This document shows, in pieces, positions 2,360 to 42,833 of a stretch of 55,239 nucleotides of DNA. The position numbers and the translations under genes are program-made. The stretch is from Candidatus Methylomirabilota bacterium. GTDB taxonomy: Bacteria > Methylomirabilota > Methylomirabilia > Rokubacteriales > CSP1-6. Position 1 is the stretch's first letter. Each line of letters begins with the position of its first letter. The notes beneath the pieces are model-generated. The model saw only the letters and a program-made list of their open reading frames with translations, was not told the origin of the DNA and made no database searches. The stretch spans positions 1 through 55,239 of the forward strand of contig DATFVL010000062.1 of NCBI GenBank assembly GCA_035260325.1. The letters are read 5' to 3'.

Positions 2360-3279
2360 CGGAGCGGGTGCAGGAGATCCTGAGCTGGTACGGAAGCGAC
2401 AACCCGGGGACGCTGACGAACCTCGCGCGCCTCTTGAGCTGCGGCGCGCTCGCCGGCAGCGGCAAGCTCGTGATCCTGCCGGTGGACCAGGGCTTCGAGC
2501 ATGGCCCGGGGCGGTCGTTCGCGATGAACCCCGCCGCCTACGATCCGCGCTACCACTTCGAGCTCGCGATCGAGGCCGGCTGCAACGCCTACGCCGCGCC
2601 GCTCGGCTTCCTCGAGGCCGGCGCGCGCCAGTTCGCCGGCCGGGTGCCGCTGATCCTCAAGCTCAGCAACCACGACGTGCTCCTCGACGACAAGGACCCC
2701 GAGCAGGCGATGACGGGCAGCGTTGAGGACGCGGTGCGCCTCGGCTGCGTCGGCATCGGCTTCACGATCTATCCCGGCTCCGAGCACCGGCTCGCGATGT
2801 ACGGCCAGCTCCGAGGCCTCGCGGAGGAGGCGAAGCGGCGCGGCCTCGCCGTGGTCGTCTGGTCGTACCCGCGGGGCTCCGGCCTCTCCAAAGATGGCGA
2901 GACGGCGATCGACGTCACGGCGTACGCGGCACACATCGCCGCCCAGCTCGGCGCGCACGTCATCAAGGTGAAGCTTCCGTCGGCTCACCTCGAGCAAGCG
3001 GCGGCGAAGAAGGTCTACGAGAAGGAGGGCGTGCCCACCGGGACGCTCGCCGAGCGCGTCCGCCATGTCGTCCAGGCGACGTTCGACGGCCGGCGGATCG
3101 TGATCTTTTCGGGCGGCACCGCGGACACGGACGAGGCGATCTTCGAACAGGTGAGGGCGATCCGCGACGGCGGCGGCTTCGGCTCGATCATTGGGCGCAA
3201 CTCGTTCCAGCGGAAACGGCCCGACGCGCTCAGGTTCCTCCGGACGGTCATGGACATCTACGCGGGGGCCAGGAAGTAG
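2356..3279 (+). CDS. class I fructose-bisphosphate aldolase (DhnA/archaeal type)
   Basis: ATG 2356 overlaps the fbp stop (ATGA). Peptide LVILPVDQGFEHGP..AHVIKVKLP..GRNSFQR is typical of the DhnA-type aldolase family. Confidence 0.85.
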   Translation: MTERVQEILSWYGSDNPGTLTNLARLLSCGALAGSGKLVILPVDQGFEHGPGRSFAMNPAAYDPRYHFELAIEAGCNAYAAPLGFLEAGARQFAGRVPLILKLSNHDVLLDDKDPEQAMTGSVEDAVRLGCVGIGFTIYPGSEHRLAMYGQLRGLAEEAKRRGLAVVVWSYPRGSGLSKDGETAIDVTAYAAHIAAQLGAHVIKVKLPSAHLEQAAAKKVYEKEGVPTGTLAERVRHVVQATFDGRRIVIFSGGTADTDEAIFEQVRAIRDGGGFGSIIGRNSFQRKRPDALRFLRTVMDIYAGARK

Positions 3280-3283
3280 CGGC

Positions 3284-4261
3284 ATGATCCTCGCGGGCGA
3301 CGTCGGCGGCACCAAGACCGCGCTCGCCCTCTACGAGGCGCGGGGCGGCGGGCTCGCGCCGGCGCGCGAGGCCGCGCTGCCGAGCCGCGAGTTCCCGACG
3401 TTCGAGGACGCCGTGGCGAGCTTCCTCGCCGCCGCGCCGCGCGGCGCGGTCGAGGCGGCGTGCTTCGGCGTGGCCGGGCCCGTGGTGAACGGGCGCTGCA
3501 TCGCGACGAACCTTCCCTGGGTCCTCGACGAGGCGACGCTCGCGTCCAGCATCCCGGCGAAGCGCGTGAGGCTCCTCAACGACCTCGAGGCCATGGGCCA
3601 CGGCGTCCTCGCGCTCGAGCCCGCGTCGCTCGCCACCCTCCAGGAGGGCGCGGTCCGGAAGGGCAACATGGCGCTGCTCGCCGCCGGCACCGGGCTCGGC
3701 GAAGCCCTGCTGGTCTGGAGCGGCGAGCGCCATCTCGTCGTCCGCTCTGAGGGCGGGCACGCGGACTTCGCGCCCCGGACGGACCTCGAGGTGGAGCTGC
3801 TCAGGTTCCTCCGCAAGGAGTTCGGGCGCGTGAGCTACGAGCGCGTGCTCTCCGGGCCGGGGCTCGTCAACATCTACCGCTTCCTGCGCGACACGGGAGA
3901 CGCTCCGGAGCCCGCGTGGCTCCGCGAGCGCCTCGAGCGCGAGGACCCGAGCGCCGTCGTCTCCGAGGTCGCGCTCGCGGGCAGCCACCCGCTCTGCGTC
4001 AGAGCACTCGAGCTGTTCGCGTCGATCTACGGCGCCGAGGCGGGCAACCTCGCCCTCAAGGCGTTCGCGGTCGGCGGCGTCTACGTCGGCGGCGGCATCG
4101 CGCCGAAGATCAGGGCGAAGCTCGCCGACGGCACGTTCGTCGCCGCGTTCTGCGACAAGGGCCGGTTCGCCGCGCTGATGGCGTCGATCCGCGTCTCGCT
4201 CGTCCTCGAGCCGCGGGCGGCGCTCCTGGGCGCCGCGCGCGTGGCGCGGGACCTGGTCTAG
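3284..4261 (+). CDS. glk: glucokinase
   Basis: ATG 3284 lies 5 nt after the aldolase stop. N-terminus [18 protein letters not shown] and [13 protein letters not shown] are typical of bacterial Glk. Confidence 0.85.
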
Positions 4262-4265
4262 CGGG

Positions 4266-6917
<2,652 letters not shown>

Positions 6918-39221: not shown

Positions 39222-40919
39222 ATGACGTCGAACGCGGACGACCTCGCCCGGCATCTCGCCGAAATCACGGAGCGATTCGGGACGCTGGCGGCCGTGCTCG
39301 GCCAGGCGGCGCGCGAGCTGCAAGTCTCGGGGACGCTGCCGCCCGAGGCGCTGGCCGAGGCGCTCGGCGCCGCGCGCCGCGAGTTCCTCGAAATGCGCGC
39401 GGGCATCCTCGAGGCCGCGCGCGCGCTCTCGATCAACGCGCCGAGCGCGGCCGAGCTCGACAGCATCAAGAAGCTCGAGCCCCTGATCCGGGCGGTCATC
39501 GGCGCCATCGCCGTGGAGGAGACGCGGCAAGCGGCCGGGGAGGCCAGGAAGCGCGCCCTGGCCGTGCTCGACCGTGTCCTCGCGGTCACCCACACCGACG
39601 ATCCCGGCTTCGCTCCCCTGGTGCAGTGTCAGGCGAAGGCGAAAGAGCTCCGGCAGATCGTGAACGACCCGAAGACGCTCGAGACGGCCAACCCCGCGGC
39701 CATCGCCGAAGGCGCCGCGCCCTTCGCGAACCTGCTCACGCTGATCGAGGGCCGCGAGCAGCTCGATGACGAGCGCTTCGCCGCGCTCGAGGACAGCGTC
39801 AGTCACGCGTTCGGGCGCCAGATCGCCGTCGTCGCCACGCGCGGCAAGCTCGTGGTCGCGGGCGCCGCCACGGCCGCGCCCGCGCCGCCCCCCGCCGGGC
39901 GACCCGCGCCGCCGCCCAGGGCGGTCGCGGAGGCCCCGCGCCCGGCGGCGTCGCCCGCCGCTCCGGCTCCGCCGCCGCCCCCGCTCGTCGTCCAGGAGGT
40001 CGCGGTCACGCCGCGGCCTGTCAAGGAGGACGCGGGCGCCGCGCGGGCGGTGGAGCAGGCCGCCCAGGACGAAGCGGCGCAGTGGTGGGTCTCCGCGTGG
40101 GCCCGCTGGACGAGCTGGAAGAGCTCGATCTCGTTCAACGACGCGGTGAAGCAGGAGCTGCAGAAGTACTCCTACATCCTGAGCGTGCCGATCCAGAAGA
40201 GCACCGACTACGAGGAGGGGCTTCTCGCGTACGGCTACTCGATCCTGCTCGAGTTCGCCGAGAAGCAGAACCCGGGGCTCGTTAACAAGGCGCTCAACAG
40301 CCTGAAGACGTTCGCGCCCGGCCCGGGGAAGTCCGTCGGCACGCACCTCTACGACTTCCTCGTCACCGAGGGAAGGCTCGTCGAGCTCTACCCGGAGTTC
40401 GTGAAGAACGTGCTGGTCGCCGCGGTGCCGGAGCCCGGGCTGTGGACGCAGGCCCGCATCCTCGAGTCCACCGTCGAGACCCGCGTGTTCACGCATCCGA
40501 CCCCGCGGATCGGCGACACCGAGCACAACTCACAGCGCCTGACGCAGGACCGGCAGCGCTTCACCGACCACCGGTTCCAGGTCGCGATGGCGCCGCTGAC
40601 CGCGCGCTTCTTCGCGATCGCCGGCGACCTGCGCGAGCCGCGCTCGATCGACGTGAAGCTCGTGGACGGACGCAGCGACTCCGACCAGGCATGGCTCCTC
40701 ACCATGCCGCCCGCCGGACGCGCCGACCTCAAGTCGGAGCTCCTCCGGCTGGCGCCGGAGGGCACCTCGGTCCCCGGTCTCGGGAGGGACTACGCGACGC
40801 TCTGGGTCGCCGTGTTCAACACGGAGACCGCCGCCGAGAAGAAGTACGAGCTGGCGCTCGGGCTGCGGAAGGAAGGGGCGGCGAAGCCCGCCGCGACGTT
40901 CAGGTCCGCTCGGGCGTAA
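39222..40919 (+). CDS. hypothetical protein: helical N-domain, Pro/Ala-rich linker, unknown C-terminal domain
   Basis: 565-aa ORF with protein-like composition. Linker AAPAPPPAGRPAPPPRAVAEAPRPAASPAAPAPPPPP. The C-domain (WWVSAWARWTSWKSS..YSYILSVPIQKSTDYEEG..) matches no family I recognise. Confidence 0.7.
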   Translation: MTSNADDLARHLAEITERFGTLAAVLGQAARELQVSGTLPPEALAEALGAARREFLEMRAGILEAARALSINAPSAAELDSIKKLEPLIRAVIGAIAVEETRQAAGEARKRALAVLDRVLAVTHTDDPGFAPLVQCQAKAKELRQIVNDPKTLETANPAAIAEGAAPFANLLTLIEGREQLDDERFAALEDSVSHAFGRQIAVVATRGKLVVAGAATAAPAPPPAGRPAPPPRAVAEAPRPAASPAAPAPPPPPLVVQEVAVTPRPVKEDAGAARAVEQAAQDEAAQWWVSAWARWTSWKSSISFNDAVKQELQKYSYILSVPIQKSTDYEEGLLAYGYSILLEFAEKQNPGLVNKALNSLKTFAPGPGKSVGTHLYDFLVTEGRLVELYPEFVKNVLVAAVPEPGLWTQARILESTVETRVFTHPTPRIGDTEHNSQRLTQDRQRFTDHRFQVAMAPLTARFFAIAGDLREPRSIDVKLVDGRSDSDQAWLLTMPPAGRADLKSELLRLAPEGTSVPGLGRDYATLWVAVFNTETAAEKKYELALGLRKEGAAKPAATFRSARA

Positions 40920-40922
40920 CCC

Positions 40923-41297
40923 TCAGGCCTTCGGGCGCTCGGCGGCCTTCGGCGGCTCCCCCGCCTTCGCCGGCTCGGCGGCCTTCGGGGGCTCGCCGGG
41001 CCTCGCCGGGTGATCGCCGCCGGGGGTGCGCTCGAAGGGGCTCTTGCGCGGCGCGATGCCGAGCTTCGCGGCGACCTGGCCCATCGCCTGGGTGATGTCG
41101 TCCTTTTCGACGCGAAGCTGGTGGTTCTCCCGCCTGAGCTCCTCGACCTCTTTCTTCAGCTTCTCGACTTCCCTCTCGGCCGCGGCCGCCCGCTCGTTGA
41201 CGTGCGTCTCGCTGGCGAAGAGCTCGGGCAGGAGGGTAAAGAGCTGCCTGGTCTCCTCGATCCACTTGGTCACTCGCTCACGGGCTTCGGCAGCCAT
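40923..41297 (-). CDS. hypothetical coiled-coil protein with a PKAAE repeat tail
   Basis: ATG 41297 follows GAGGAG. Heptad-like AAAEREVEKLKKEVEELRRENHQLRVEKDD. Tail GEPPKAAEPAKAGEPPKAAERPKA. Its stop lies 3 nt from the convergent stop at 40919. Confidence 0.6.
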   Translation of the reverse strand: MAAEARERVTKWIEETRQLFTLLPELFASETHVNERAAAAEREVEKLKKEVEELRRENHQLRVEKDDITQAMGQVAAKLGIAPRKSPFERTPGGDHPARPGEPPKAAEPAKAGEPPKAAERPKA

Positions 41298-41380: not shown

Positions 41381-41737
41381 TCACCGCCGATAGCGCGTCT
41401 CGAAGAGCAGCACCCCGTGCGGCGAGCGGTACGGGCCGTGGCGCATGCCGGGCGGCCGGCAGGCGTACATCCCCGCGCTGAACGTCCGGCCCTTGCCGAG
41501 ATCGATCACGGAGCCCTCGAGGATCCAGACCTCCTCCCAGAAGTCGTGGGCGATCGTGTCCGGGGTTTCCGTGCCTGGCGCCATGCGGAGGAGGCGTGTG
41601 ACGTCGCCGGACAGTGGGTCACGGCTCAGGATTTTCTCCTCGATCCCCGGGCCCCCGGCGCCCGTGTCGGGCGAGCCCGCGACGGGCCGCCACGGCAGGT
41701 CGTCGGGGCGGAAGAACTCGAGCTCGGGCTTCGGCAC
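41381..41737 (-). CDS. cupin domain protein (ChrR-like cupin_7 by resemblance)
   Basis: GTG 41737 lies 2 nt after the redoxin stop. HDFWEEVWILEGSVIDLGKGRTFSAGMYACRPPGMRHGP. Confidence 0.7.
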   Translation of the reverse strand: MPKPELEFFRPDDLPWRPVAGSPDTGAGGPGIEEKILSRDPLSGDVTRLLRMAPGTETPDTIAHDFWEEVWILEGSVIDLGKGRTFSAGMYACRPPGMRHGPYRSPHGVLLFETRYRR

Positions 41738-41739
41738 CC

Positions 41740-42282
41740 TCAGGGCTTCTTGGGGAGCGCCAGCAGGTCCTGGACGAGCTTGCGGGCCGCCGGCTTGTCC
41801 CAGTCCCGCGGGCCCACCATGCGGGCGATCAGACGCCCCTGGCGGTCGACGAGGTACGCGGTCGGCGGGCCGAAGACGCCATAGGCCTTGCCGGTCACGT
41901 CACCCCTCTCGTCCAGCAGCACGGGCGCGACGTAGCCGCGCTCGGCGACCGTGCGCCTGACGAGCGCCGGATCCTCACGGAAGCTGATCAGCCGCACCTC
42001 GAGCCCCTGCTTCCTGAGCTCCCCGTATAGCCGGTTGACGGAAGGTAACTCCTCCCGGCAGTCCGGTCACCACGTGGTCCAGAAGACGAGGAGCACCACC
42101 TTGCCGCGCAGGTCGGCGAGGGTGACGGTTTTCCCTTGGAGGTCCGGCAGGGCGAAGTCCGGCGCGGGCTTCGGCGGGTCGTAGCGCTGGATGCCGAGGC
42201 TCGCAAAGTCCGCCGCCGCGGCGCCGGCGGCGAACGCCAGGAGCGCCAGGACGAGTGCGCCCGCGCCGAGGCGCCGCGCCAT
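41740..42282 (-). CDS. exported TlpA/ResA-like thiol:disulfide oxidoreductase, predicted selenoprotein (UxxC; TGA 42067-42069 read as Sec)
   Basis: ORFs 42067-42282 and 41740-41997 are in the same frame. Hand translation across the gap gives [45 protein letters not shown]. The family motif is FWxxWCxxC. Signal peptide [24 protein letters not shown]. Confidence 0.75.
42031..42066 (-). promoter_or_regulatory. SECIS-like stem-loop immediately 3' of the redoxin UGA
   Basis: RNA CCGG-AC-UG-C-CGGGAGG-AGUUA-CCUUCCG-U-CA-A-CCGG. There is a 7-bp apical stem (one G-U pair), loop AGUUA starting 19 nt after the U of UGA, plus 2-bp and 4-bp lower stems. Confidence 0.45.
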
Positions 42283-42833
42283 CAGGCGCCCGATGCCTTG
42301 AAGGCCGCCAGGACCTCCTCAGGGTTCAGGAGATCGAGCGCGTTGTCCTGGATCTTGATGTACTTGACGATGCCGTTCCGATCGATGATGAAATAGGTGC
42401 GCTTCGCGTACCGGAAGATCGGGCTCTTCTCGTCCGTGACCATCGCGCCCCACACCGGCAGCATCTGGCGGCGGAAGTCGGACAGGAGGAGGTGCTTGAT
42501 CGGGTTCTGCTTGGCCCACCCGGCGAGCGTCGCCTGGTGGTCAGCGCTCACGCCCACGACCTGGGCGCCCGCGGCCTCGAACTGCGCGTGGAGCGCGTCG
42601 AAGCCGAGGATCTCCTTCGTTCAGGTGGGGGTGAAGGCCTGGATCACGGTGTACAGGACGACCGGGCCCTTGGCCGTGAGCTCGGAGAGCTTGACGGGCT
42701 TGCCGTCCACGCCGAGCAGCGCGAAGTCGGGCGCCTTCTGGCCCACCTCGAGCGCGCTCGCGGCGCCGGCGGAGACCAGGACGACGAGCAGGCCCCAGAG
42801 CAGGGCGTGCACGACTGAACGCTTGGATCGCAT
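42282..42833 (-). CDS. exported peroxiredoxin (AhpC/TSA-BCP type), predicted selenoprotein (TGA 42621-42623 read as Sec at the peroxidatic position)
   Basis: ORFs 42621-42833 and 42282-42557 are in the same frame. Hand translation gives [43 protein letters not shown], where the family has (F)TP(T/G)C(T/S)xE. Signal peptide [34 protein letters not shown] precedes ATG 42833. Confidence 0.75.
42573..42605 (-). promoter_or_regulatory. SECIS-candidate stem-loop 3' of the peroxiredoxin UGA
   Basis: RNA GGCUUCGA-C-GCGC-UCCAC-GCGC-AGU-UCGAGGCC. There is an 8-bp lower stem (one G-U pair), a 4-bp upper stem, and an apical loop 31 nt after the U of UGA. The loop lacks the usual G, so confidence is lower. 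Confidence 0.35.

Follow-up and report, generated by a model that had tools for sequence, protein, structure and literature searches.

A predicted UxxC selenoprotein redoxin of the TlpA-like family in Methylomirabilota, encoded across an in-frame UGA beside a gene for a peroxiredoxin-like selenoprotein

The minus-strand interval 41740-42282 of the window, a term that denotes here the whole analysed stretch of 55,239 nucleotides from a contig of Candidatus Methylomirabilota bacterium, is best read as one intact selenoprotein gene, neither two open reading frames nor a pseudogene, with a probability of about 0.9. The original prediction of a real selenoprotein is strongly supported by the conservation of its in-frame TGA, the coding constraint downstream of it, the hairpin that follows it, and the presence of selenocysteine (Sec) machinery in related MAGs. 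Catalogues of selenoproteins have listed UxxC redoxins since 2004-2008 (PMC13188914, PMC1794560), including the peroxiredoxin (Prx)-like thiol:disulfide oxidoreductase, Redoxin, and thiol-disulfide isomerase-like families (PMC13188914, Table 1), and a passage in PMC13188914 credits Deng et al. 2026 with a Methylomirabilota MAG carrying 63 predicted selenoproteins. The kind is thus already known, both as UxxC redoxins and as selenoprotein-rich Methylomirabilota, and current understanding is not overturned. The features of the gene are as follows.

41740-42282, minus strand: complete coding sequence of the TlpA-like predicted selenoprotein, which on read-through gives 180 residues, residue 72 being Sec
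42208-42282, minus strand: predicted export signal, residues about 1-25, read from the sequence, with an approximate cleavage site
42067-42069, minus strand: UGA predicted to encode Sec, the N-terminal nucleophile of U-P-D-C, placed by orthologues, homologues, and structures
42058-42060, minus strand: codon of Cys75, resolving residue of UxxC and sole Cys of the mature protein
41740-41742, minus strand: true stop TGA of the gene

The two minus-strand open reading frames from which the reading started, 42067-42282 and 41740-41997, are both present and share one frame, and the long open frame described beyond the TGA comprises 108 sense codons before the stop. A single Pfam domain, AhpC-TSA, crosses the TGA (residues 38-152, E 1.7e-26) and ranks first among the Pfam matches, which also include Redoxin over the read-through protein (E 3.6e-22), Thioredoxin_8, likewise spanning the TGA, and SCO1-SenC. 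The proposal that the TGA stands for the N-terminal catalytic Cys is borne out by an aligned Cys in full-length homologues, whose active site is WC(P/S)(D/A/P)C, and in TlpA/ResA-type structures. In the alignment with 3kcm, the nearest relative among solved structures (a 'thioredoxin family protein' with WCxxC, E 1.5e-29), the TGA falls opposite the first Cys of WCxxC, as it does in the alignments with 4nmu (ResA) and with 1jfu; TlpA is likewise among the PDB matches, the alignments span residues 38-169, and P140 and T141, invariant or nearly so among the orthologues, lie opposite the Pro-Thr of ResA. Because sequence matches in the PDB reach E 1e-29, the fold can be regarded as settled, and the mature redoxin is predicted to adopt, over about 155 residues, a TlpA/ResA/CcmG-type thioredoxin fold with the centre U72-P-D-C75. 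The product would be made as a pre-protein, about 180 residues long, whose predicted N-terminal export signal was judged by eye from a charged start, a hydrophobic core, and Ala-x-Ala; the N-termini of the orthologues are variable yet hydrophobic and are followed by a conserved PDFAxL.

The name TlpA-like holds at the family level and fails as an equivalog assignment, since no TlpA or ResA cut-off was reached. The best NCBIfam similarities are to ResA (97 against a cut-off of 170), TlpA (85.5 against 230), StoA (71 against 210), and DsbE (59 against 123), and the model for a WAxxUGC ResA-like selenoprotein gives 63 against 300. Compared with Bradyrhizobium TlpA, Bacillus ResA, and CcmG/DsbE, the redoxin belongs to the same fold family and has in common the context FW(A/T)TW-[C/U]-xx-C-(R)-E-E, the cis-Pro position (G-P-P-T), and an N-terminal export or anchor segment, predicted here, whereas its nucleophile would be Sec rather than Cys, its scores lie far under the equivalog cut-offs, and its gene does not stand beside genes for cytochrome c or copper-site maturation. 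With the catalogued UxxC redoxins it has in common AhpC-TSA/Redoxin domains (PF00578/PF08534-type), the UxxC motif, Sec in place of the N-terminal Cys, and a SECIS element directly downstream, and the prediction follows the same comparative logic; the catalogued type members come from Deltaproteobacteria, Clostridia, and marine metagenomes, whereas the present clade belongs to Rokubacteria/Methylomirabilota of soil and groundwater. The likeness was drawn from the family definitions; relative to the type members WP_010940744.1, HEU0032618.1, and MGB1650493.1, the clade may represent the same family or a parallel conversion of Cys to Sec.

The comparative evidence comes from 83 orthologous sites: besides the window, they lie on a few metagenome contigs and in loci of a collection with one genome per species. 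A few of the sites are identical or near-identical, and 81 are distinct sequences. Their hosts are almost all Rokubacteria/Methylomirabilota MAGs. The codon at the Sec site is TGA in 82 of the 83 and TGC in one, with no TAA or TAG, and the orthologues, instead of ending there, keep the downstream half under coding constraint: differences per codon position among the 81 distinct sequences amount to 0.225/0.227/0.454 downstream of the TGA and 0.222/0.161/0.439 upstream, a substitution pattern that indicates translation of the downstream half. Cys75 is unchanged in the 81 sequences, and the redoxin contains exactly one Cys in all 83 orthologues. An assembly error had been named as a risk, and it is contradicted by the reproduction of the TGA in two independent assemblies, as the contigs of JGI 3300026551 and GCA_009772395.1, 99.4-99.9% identical, retain both this TGA and that of the gene upstream. 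Gene callers split the gene, as had been anticipated, giving fragments of 71 and 85 aa in the window and of about 68 and 101 aa in other sequences, and hundreds of database proteins of 99-105 aa that start just past the Sec site are such split calls; every gene caller seen breaks the redoxin and Prx genes into four fragments.

The idea of a pseudogene, a nonsense allele, or a sequencing or assembly error, with the downstream half dead or separately expressed, could appeal to this universal splitting and to a few database entries with TTA or GGA at the site, on low-coverage contigs of about 1 kb, which indicate that errors or rare alleles do occur there, but it is effectively refuted by the comparative data and keeps next to no probability, given the 82 retained TGA codons, the same codon-position constraint in both halves, the agreement of the assemblies, a split that would cut the thioredoxin fold through its active site, and downstream 'start' codons that vary (M or L at PSVN, a later GTG in the window). 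A suspicion that database proteins showing Gly, Trp, or Leu there reflect TGA read under another genetic code was dropped, as the two that were checked have real GGA and TTA codons.

The hairpin after the redoxin UGA consists of the following parts.

42031-42066, minus strand: extended 36-nt stem-loop, -16.9 kcal/mol, z -2.4
42036-42060, minus strand: predicted bSECIS core hairpin, MFE -10.4 kcal/mol, z -2.6
42051-42057 paired with 42039-42045, minus strand: core stem of 7 bp
42046-42050, minus strand: apical loop AGUUA
42059-42060 paired with 42036-42037, minus strand: flanking U-A and G-C pairs, part of the conserved core

Bacterial SECIS elements work by recruiting SelB; the hairpin core 42060-42036, with its loop AGUUA, would bring SelB with Sec-tRNA(Sec) to the ribosome, and the UGA at 42069-42067 would be read as selenocysteine during translation. 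The 36-nt composite stem-loop first described folds as claimed, but its lower CCGG/CCGG stem is not conserved (56% of cells paired) and is peculiar to the window sequence and some others. Conservation is confined to the upper 7-bp stem and the UG/CA pairs (42036-42060), where pairing holds for 96.6% of cells in 79 sequences, six core stem pairs being paired in all 79 and one varying among GU (32), GC (28), and AU (19), with three compensatory double changes in the upper stem. The covariation of this TlpA-type stem, which lies within conserved coding sequence, is modest (score 0.104 versus 0.082). Codon entropy across the 81 sequences is 0.26 bits in the hairpin versus 1.18 elsewhere; Leu at +7 is encoded by TTG or TTA in 81 of 81, codons used for only 53 of the 1391 other Leu residues, and Pro at +8 is CCT in 79 of 81. 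The hairpin holds down synonymous variation and imposes rare TTR-Leu and CCT-Pro codons, and the SECIS of the lineage can be written as the stem CGGGAGG/CCUUCCG with the loop AGUUR.

The bSECIS rules call for a loop of 3-9 nt, an upper stem of 4-16 bp, a G within the first two loop positions, a distance of 16-37 nt from the UGA, and an MFE of -7.5 kcal/mol or lower (PMC13188914). The core hairpin agrees with all of them, having a loop of 5 nt with G as its second letter and U next to it, a stem of 7 bp, and -10.4 kcal/mol; the loop does begin 19 nt from the U of the UGA, as originally counted, which equals a 16-nt spacer, the shortest that the rule allows. Folded alone in a 66-nt context, the single sequence does not stand out from shuffles (z -0.55), and the evidential weight of the hairpin comes solely from the comparison of orthologues. 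Searches of Rfam with the whole window at gathering thresholds, and with the locus at E values up to 10, returned no SECIS or meaningful family.

For the decoding machinery, ARAGORN identified a tRNA-Sec in the MAG SMAG_U8709, which also hosts an orthologue (L051); it scores 69.1 bits against the Rfam family RF01852, whose cut-off is 47. The same type of tRNA-Sec was found by a sequence-pattern search in at least 18 ortholog-bearing MAGs, and ARAGORN calls tRNA-SeC in 116 of 120 scanned loci. Both selA and selB adjoin the tRNA-Sec in at least seven MAGs (AR31, AR27, SMAG_U3913, GS_EKS_MAG_00053, SMAG_U789, MAG159, and nzgw243), and one of the two is listed beside it in five further MAGs; identity to E. 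coli is 46-49% for SelA (E about 1e-105 to 1e-118) and 31-36% for SelB (E about 1e-72 to 1e-81). These genes were seen in MAGs related to the window's own genome, and MAG membership can be wrong. The recommended check of the machinery came out in favour of selC, selA, and selB in related MAGs bearing orthologues, while selD was not located: no match turned up in the window, the orthologue loci, or the 8-kb surroundings of selC in Rokubacterial loci. When E. coli SelA, SelB, and SelD served as tblastn queries, neither the window nor any orthologue locus yielded a match, ARAGORN found no tRNA in the window, and no sel genes or DsbD occur among 20 further Pfam-labelled window genes and the labels for 32.9-53.9 kb. 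The labelled window genes belong to ordinary metabolism and transport.

A decoding of the UGA other than as Sec, whether by near-cognate Trp, by lineage-wide reassignment of UGA, or as Cys through a tRNA(UCA) with SelB, is very improbable. The inserted residue is not deducible from sequence alone, the examined loci yielded no selD, and there is a precedent in the recoding of Sec-UGA to Cys by a non-canonical tRNA-Cys with SelB, listed as Vargas-Rodriguez et al. 2018 among the references of PMC13582414. Against this, among ordinary stops in the window TGA is the most frequent, which excludes reassignment; it ends 24 of 35 predicted window genes, a count that includes the Sec-TGA of the Prx gene and is based on open reading frames delimited from stop to stop, as well as both read-through genes. 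A CxxC enzyme would be inactive if its nucleophile position were taken by Trp or Gly, and simple read-through needs no conserved SelB-type hairpin. The tRNA found in these MAGs scores as canonical tRNA-Sec and adjoins selA, whose sole role, to our knowledge, is to make Sec-tRNA(Sec).

The genes on either side of the redoxin have the following features.

42282-42833, minus strand: predicted exported Prx-like (BCP/PrxQ-type) selenoprotein, 183 residues, Pfam AhpC-TSA E 1.2e-29
upstream of 42833, minus strand: Shine-Dalgarno AAGGAGG ahead of the Prx ATG at 42833
42621-42623, minus strand: predicted Sec-encoding UGA of the Prx-like gene (AFTPT-U-TKE)
42573-42605, minus strand: conserved hairpin after the Prx UGA, MFE -18.5 kcal/mol, z -4.1
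42282-42284, minus strand: Prx stop TGA, overlapping the redoxin ATG
41381-41737, minus strand: Cupin_7 (ChrR-like cupin) open reading frame, 118 aa, starting 2 nt past the redoxin stop

The Prx-like gene directly upstream, to which the redoxin gene is translationally coupled, was missed as a selenoprotein gene in the first reading. Its product is predicted to be a second selenoprotein with Sec at the peroxidatic position, as its TGA falls opposite the peroxidatic Cys in the alignment with the BCP structure 2cx3 (E 9.8e-22), and, of 64 loci in which this gene could be found, 58 have TGA at the site, the other six being partially aligned or cut short. The hairpin has an 8-bp outer stem, an inner stem of 4-5 bp, a 3' AGU bulge, and a loop that begins 29 nt past the UGA; 87.9% of its cells are paired, with 29 double-change cells versus 9.4 in shuffles, and its apical loop has no G, which departs from one rule of the bSECIS consensus. 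Compared with the catalogued Sec-Prx (TxxU; PMC13188914), the neighbour has in common the AhpC-TSA domain, a peroxidatic Sec, Thr at -3, and the Arg of SDFRR, and differs in lacking both that loop G and a resolving Cys (no Cys at all in 61 of 63 orthologues), in its predicted signal peptide, and in the -7 position, where the Pro of PxxxTxxU and PxxxTxxC is replaced by Ile in the window sequence and, in the contexts common among orthologues, by Ile or Leu. Peroxidase activity is accordingly plausible, although not assured. The cupin gene, labelled from Pfam on the identical gene in two loci (L095 and L096), is possibly a third gene of the operon. A GC3-based scan of the window for other in-frame TGAs with a two-sided coding signal returned only the redoxin and Prx sites, and further candidates at 72% G+C were judged by eye to be off-frame artefacts or ordinary stops.

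Of 68 loci of this redoxin subfamily, 59 have the Prx gene directly upstream of the redoxin gene, and the pair is kept across dozens of Rokubacterial species; a U(P/T)TC sister subfamily of the redoxin, represented by 13 loci, has no Prx neighbour. The lone TGC site among the 83, in L037, is without the hairpin, and in the TGC forms of L099 and L100 the hairpin is degraded with the Sec-Prx still upstream. Because such Cys-form redoxins coexist with Sec-Prx, Sec is not required in the redoxin.

The gene order raises the proposal that the two proteins form a periplasmic peroxide-reducing relay in which the redoxin reduces the Prx, a proposal that is given roughly even odds and is modelled on the envelope peroxide-reduction pathway ScsB -> TlpA -> PprX of Caulobacter crescentus (PMC3322552), a precedent for an exported TlpA that reduces an exported PrxQ-type peroxiredoxin. 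Peroxide would oxidise the Prx-like peroxidase to the selenenic acid; the selenolate of the TlpA-like redoxin would attack the oxidised Prx to form a mixed Se-Se intermediate; C75 would resolve it, so that the redoxin ends up with an internal Se-S bond; and a putative membrane electron transporter of the DsbD/CcdA/ScsB kind would re-reduce the redoxin. In effect, the relay would be the Caulobacter pathway built on selenium. Both include an exported TlpA-like protein and an exported BCP/PrxQ-type Prx, and the dependence of the Caulobacter peroxiredoxin on a thioredoxin-like donor is likened to the present pair; here, in contrast, Sec would occur in both co-transcribed partners, the pairing is drawn from gene order, the Prx-like protein is without Cys or the canonical Pro, and no ScsB/DsbD is nearby, tblastn with E. 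coli DsbD having found no homologue in the window or the flanks of Rokubacterial loci. The narrower idea of a dedicated all-selenium envelope relay, in which a Cys-free 1-Sec Prx is served by a UxxC reductant through a transient diselenide, is more tentative.

A genuine selenoprotein with another job, such as the reduction of apocytochrome c, of Sco/CoxB copper sites, or of other envelope proteins, or a Prx-like peroxidase activity of its own, is a real possibility, on the lesser side of even. The models for such jobs are Bradyrhizobium TlpA, Bacillus ResA, and CcmG, in line with the best NCBIfam similarities; the first rank of AhpC-TSA and the SCO1-SenC match in Pfam point the same way, as do the sister subfamily found without a Prx and the catalogued 'Prx-like thiol:disulfide oxidoreductase' selenoproteins, which have no assigned function (PMC13188914). 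Set against it are the tight adjacency of Prx and redoxin with overlapping stop and start in most loci, the missing resolving Cys of the Prx, which implies the need for an external reductant, the predicted export signals on both proteins, and the lack of cytochrome c maturation or cytochrome oxidase genes among the labelled genes, which cover part of the window.

Reading the gene as a selenoprotein gene repairs the annotation of a family widespread in Rokubacteria/Methylomirabilota and adds a well-supported case to the evidence for heavy selenium use in a soil and groundwater phylum. The natural Sec/Cys pairs, with a decaying hairpin in the TGC forms, offer a view of the conversion of Sec to Cys, and the operon of Sec-Prx and Sec-redoxin provides a testable hypothesis for selenium-based peroxide defence in the envelope. 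If the all-selenium relay is true, it would be the first envelope peroxidase system with Sec in both the peroxidase and its reductant, and would point to a selenium-dependent defence against oxidative stress in an abundant soil phylum.

The TlpA-like redoxin gene of the window is a well-supported selenoprotein gene, as correctly proposed by the original prediction, given the conservation of its in-frame TGA, the constraint on the downstream half, an RNA hairpin, and the tRNA-Sec, selA, and selB genes of related MAGs. The features concerned are as follows:

41740-42282, minus strand: TlpA-like redoxin gene with a 180-residue read-through product, interrupted solely by the TGA at 42069-42067
42036-42060, minus strand: core hairpin of the redoxin, MFE -10.4 kcal/mol, z -2.6
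42282-42833, minus strand: peroxiredoxin (Prx)-like gene, split by an in-frame TGA at 42621-42623
42573-42605, minus strand: hairpin 3' of the Prx UGA, -18.5 kcal/mol, z -4.1
41381-41737, minus strand: Cupin_7 (ChrR-like cupin) ORF, beginning 2 nt past the redoxin stop

Translation from 42282 to 41740 confirmed that the minus-strand ORFs 42067-42282 and 41740-41997 share one frame, which stays open beyond the TGA (...[26 protein letters not shown]...) for 108 sense codons before the true stop. In a Pfam search with Cys substituted for the TGA, an AhpC-TSA domain crosses this codon (residues 38-152, E 1.7e-26), accompanied by matches to Redoxin (E 3.6e-22) and Thioredoxin_8 (E 5.9e-9). The proposed location of the TGA at the first Cys of a CxxC motif is borne out by solved structures, including 3kcm (E 1.5e-29), ResA, TlpA, and DsbE/CcmG, the WCxxC of which aligns to W-[TGA]-PDC; the active-site context is FW(A/T)TW-U-xx-C-R-E-E, and the cis-Pro position is conserved. 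The redoxin contains a single Cys in 83/83 orthologs, and its N-terminus is a predicted export signal. Since the score stays below every NCBIfam equivalog cut-off, including those of ResA (97 vs 170) and TlpA (85.5 vs 230), "TlpA-like" is a family-level label only. The in-frame TGA is a real observation, far beyond chance.

Among the best 120 of 1,019 protein matches, approximately 100 entries of 99-105 residues begin directly past this codon with (M/L)P(S/P)VN, the hallmark of automated gene calls that break the gene at the TGA, as had been anticipated. The matches listed also include 16 full-length homologs of about 180 residues with 62-72% identity to the query, most of which carry WC(P/S)(D/A/P)C. 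An alignment-driven scan of a collection with one genome per species yielded 80 loci, nearly all in Candidatus Rokubacteria/Methylomirabilota MAGs. With the window and a small number of metagenome contigs added, these provide 83 sites (81 distinct sequences), at which the aligned codon is TGA in 82/83, TGC in 1/83, and TAA or TAG in 0/83, in line with the expectation of TGA or TGC in relatives. Compared with the window, the three codon positions differ by 0.225/0.227/0.454 on the 3' side of the TGA and 0.222/0.161/0.439 on the 5' side, the former pattern indicating that the downstream half is translated and under purifying selection.

An assembly error is excluded, as the TGA is kept in contigs of two other assemblies, JGI 3300026551 and GCA_009772395.1, which are 99.4-99.9% identical to the window. 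A reassigned genetic code is likewise ruled out because TGA is the usual stop codon here, ending 24/35 predicted genes of the window (a count with ORFs delimited stop to stop, which takes in the Prx Sec-TGA) and likewise both genes discussed.

The nucleotides 3' of the UGA are conserved far beyond the requirement of the protein in 79 distinct sequences, with the consensus UGA-CCGGAC-UG-C-CGGGAGG-AGUU(G/A)-CCUUCCG-U-CA. Across these sequences, 96.6% of cells in the 7-bp stem and at the UG/CA positions hold paired bases; one stem pair varies among GU (32), GC (28), and AU (19), and two others exhibit compensatory double changes, such as CGGAGGG/CCCUCCG (L016, L024) and CGAGAGG/CCUCUCG (L080). 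None of 500 shuffles and no slid control reaches the covariation score of the stem. Codons +3 to +10 have an entropy of 0.26 bits, compared with 1.18 for the rest of the gene; Leu+7 is encoded by TTG or TTA in 81/81 sequences, TTR accounting for only 53/1391 of the other Leu codons in these genes, and Pro+8 is CCT in 79/81. These synonymous-site data are the strongest argument for an RNA element. The check for a bacterial SECIS (bSECIS) was positive, as the core hairpin agrees with all four rules of the published model (PMC13188914), having a 5-nt loop with G at position 2 followed by U, a 7-bp stem, a 16-nt spacing, and an MFE within the limit of at most -7.5. The 36-nt stem-loop originally described does fold (-16.9 kcal/mol), but only 56% of cells pair in its lower CCGG/CCGG stem, which is not conserved. 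At the TGC sites (L099, L100, L037), the hairpin is degraded or absent, as expected if it is maintained only for Sec insertion.

These natural TGC redoxins are located at L099 3213, L100 3210, and L037 3189. The first two retain Sec-Prx upstream with a partly decayed hairpin, while L037 encodes WCSPC, has no hairpin, and shares its contig with a Sec form (L040); they look like snapshots of Sec/Cys interconversion. Two database "full-length" homologs have Leu or Gly in place of Sec (L340, ~371-904; L341, ~235-765), and their interpretation as other-code translations of TGA is rejected, since real TTA and GGA codons are present, each one base from TGA. Their hairpins are intact, the contigs measure about 1 kb, and coverage of L341 is about 2; sequencing error or a rare allele probably accounts for each of these codons.

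Within the 55,239-nt window, neither a tRNA nor a sel gene was found. A scan with a pattern of the anticodon and T arms of tRNA-Sec matched a contig of MAG SMAG_U8709, also holding ortholog L051, on which the tRNA is called tRNA-SeC by ARAGORN and scores 69.1 bits against Rfam RF01852 (cut-off 47). A narrower pattern built on this tRNA matched many Rokubacterial MAGs; ortholog and tRNA-Sec pattern occur together in at least 18 MAGs, and ARAGORN called tRNA-SeC in 116/120 loci.

MAGs with ortholog locus/tRNA-Sec locus (examples)
AR31: L029/L231
AR27: L028/L234
SMAG_U3913: L062/L238
MAG159: L040/L279
nzgw243: L019/L288
AR23: L030/L284
MFD09212.bin.1.136: L066/L285

In Rokubacterial loci, tRNA-Sec adjoins selA (46-49% identity to full-length E. 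coli SelA, E ~1e-105 to 1e-118) and selB (31-36% identity, E ~1e-72 to 1e-81). Both are listed in at least 7 ortholog-holding MAGs, and one of the two in 5 more. The search for sel genes suggested earlier thus recovered tRNA-Sec, selA, and selB in MAGs with orthologs, but selD was absent from the 8-kb neighborhoods of the tRNA-Sec genes in Rokubacterial MAGs. Clusters of the three genes lie among L221-L339 (e.g., L231, L234, L238, L240, L247, L279, L288). The literature agrees that the phylum Methylomirabilota uses Sec: the statement in PMC13188914 citing Deng et al. 2026 gives 63 predicted selenoprotein genes for a Methylomirabilota MAG, and Sec-type group 4 hydrogenases occur in the phylum (PMC13582414).

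The upstream Prx-like gene is preceded by a strong Shine-Dalgarno sequence, and its stop overlaps the redoxin start (TGATG), indicating translational coupling. Its product (...[20 protein letters not shown]... around the TGA) has an AhpC-TSA domain (E 1.2e-29) and a predicted signal peptide; among solved structures it is closest to BCP/PrxQ-type peroxiredoxins; the TGA, present in 58/64 loci where the gene was found, aligns to the peroxidatic Cys of 2cx3 (E 9.8e-22). The Prx hairpin is conserved and covaries well, being paired in 87.9% of cells, with 29 double-change cells vs 9.4 in shuffles, but departs from one consensus bSECIS rule, as its apical loop lacks G (UCCAC in the window, CCU in most orthologs). 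A 3'-side AGU bulge holds an AGUU string, as in the TlpA-type loop. Among the window and orthologs in L012-L096, the active-site Thr and Arg of peroxiredoxins are kept, whereas Ile or Leu replaces the invariant Pro of PxxxTxxC, and 61/63 orthologs contain zero cysteine. Such a protein would count as a "1-Sec" enzyme with uncertain peroxidase activity.

The Cupin_7 ORF could belong to the operon as its third gene; cupins of the ChrR type are tied to oxidative-stress signaling. Sister-subfamily loci L042, L035, and L089 (~2900-5900) encode a U(P/T)TC...LPPVQK redoxin with no Prx upstream, following in L042 and L089 an approximately 786-residue ORF that looks, on visual inspection, like a CoxL-type molybdenum hydroxylase subunit. 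These loci and the window (39222-41297) have in common downstream proteins of ~124 aa (coiled-coil) and ~565 aa. Rokubacterial-type redoxins, most with a Prx gene upstream, also occur in L041/L249 (SMAG_U15472, which has a Rokubacterial-type tRNA-Sec as well), L076, L077, L057, and L083, from MAGs labeled Verrucomicrobiia, Binatia, Tepidiformaceae, or Deferrimicrobiaceae, for which misbinning or mislabeling is a likelier explanation than gene transfer. Near one Rokubacterial ortholog locus, ARAGORN lists a tRNA that it cannot classify ("tRNA-???"), its anticodon being called as two bases (L034 3506-3593).

Sec-Prx lies directly upstream in 59/68 loci of the window's redoxin subfamily (...LP(S/P)VN..., mostly UPDC) and in 0/13 loci of the sister subfamily (...LPPVQK..., U(P/T)TC). 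The redoxin may mature other envelope proteins rather than serve the relay proposed below; Cys-form redoxins coexist with Sec-Prx, and a neighborhood search found no DsbD/CcdA homolog near the operon. A Prx-like protein without Cys implies that the peroxidatic selenoprotein needs an external reductant, and in Caulobacter, as a precedent, electrons from ScsB pass through an exported TlpA to the exported PrxQ-type PprX (PMC3322552). On these grounds, a periplasmic relay is favored, in which peroxide would oxidize Prx-Sec, redoxin U72/C75 would reduce the oxidized Prx-Sec, and a putative membrane donor would re-reduce U72/C75.

For a specialist, the redoxin selenoprotein is of moderate-to-low surprise, and UxxC redoxin families (Prx-like thiol:disulfide oxidoreductase, Redoxin family, thiol-disulfide isomerase-like) as well as Sec-peroxiredoxin are already among the cataloged selenoproteins (PMC13188914, PMC1794560); the most interesting aspect is the conserved operon of two selenoproteins.
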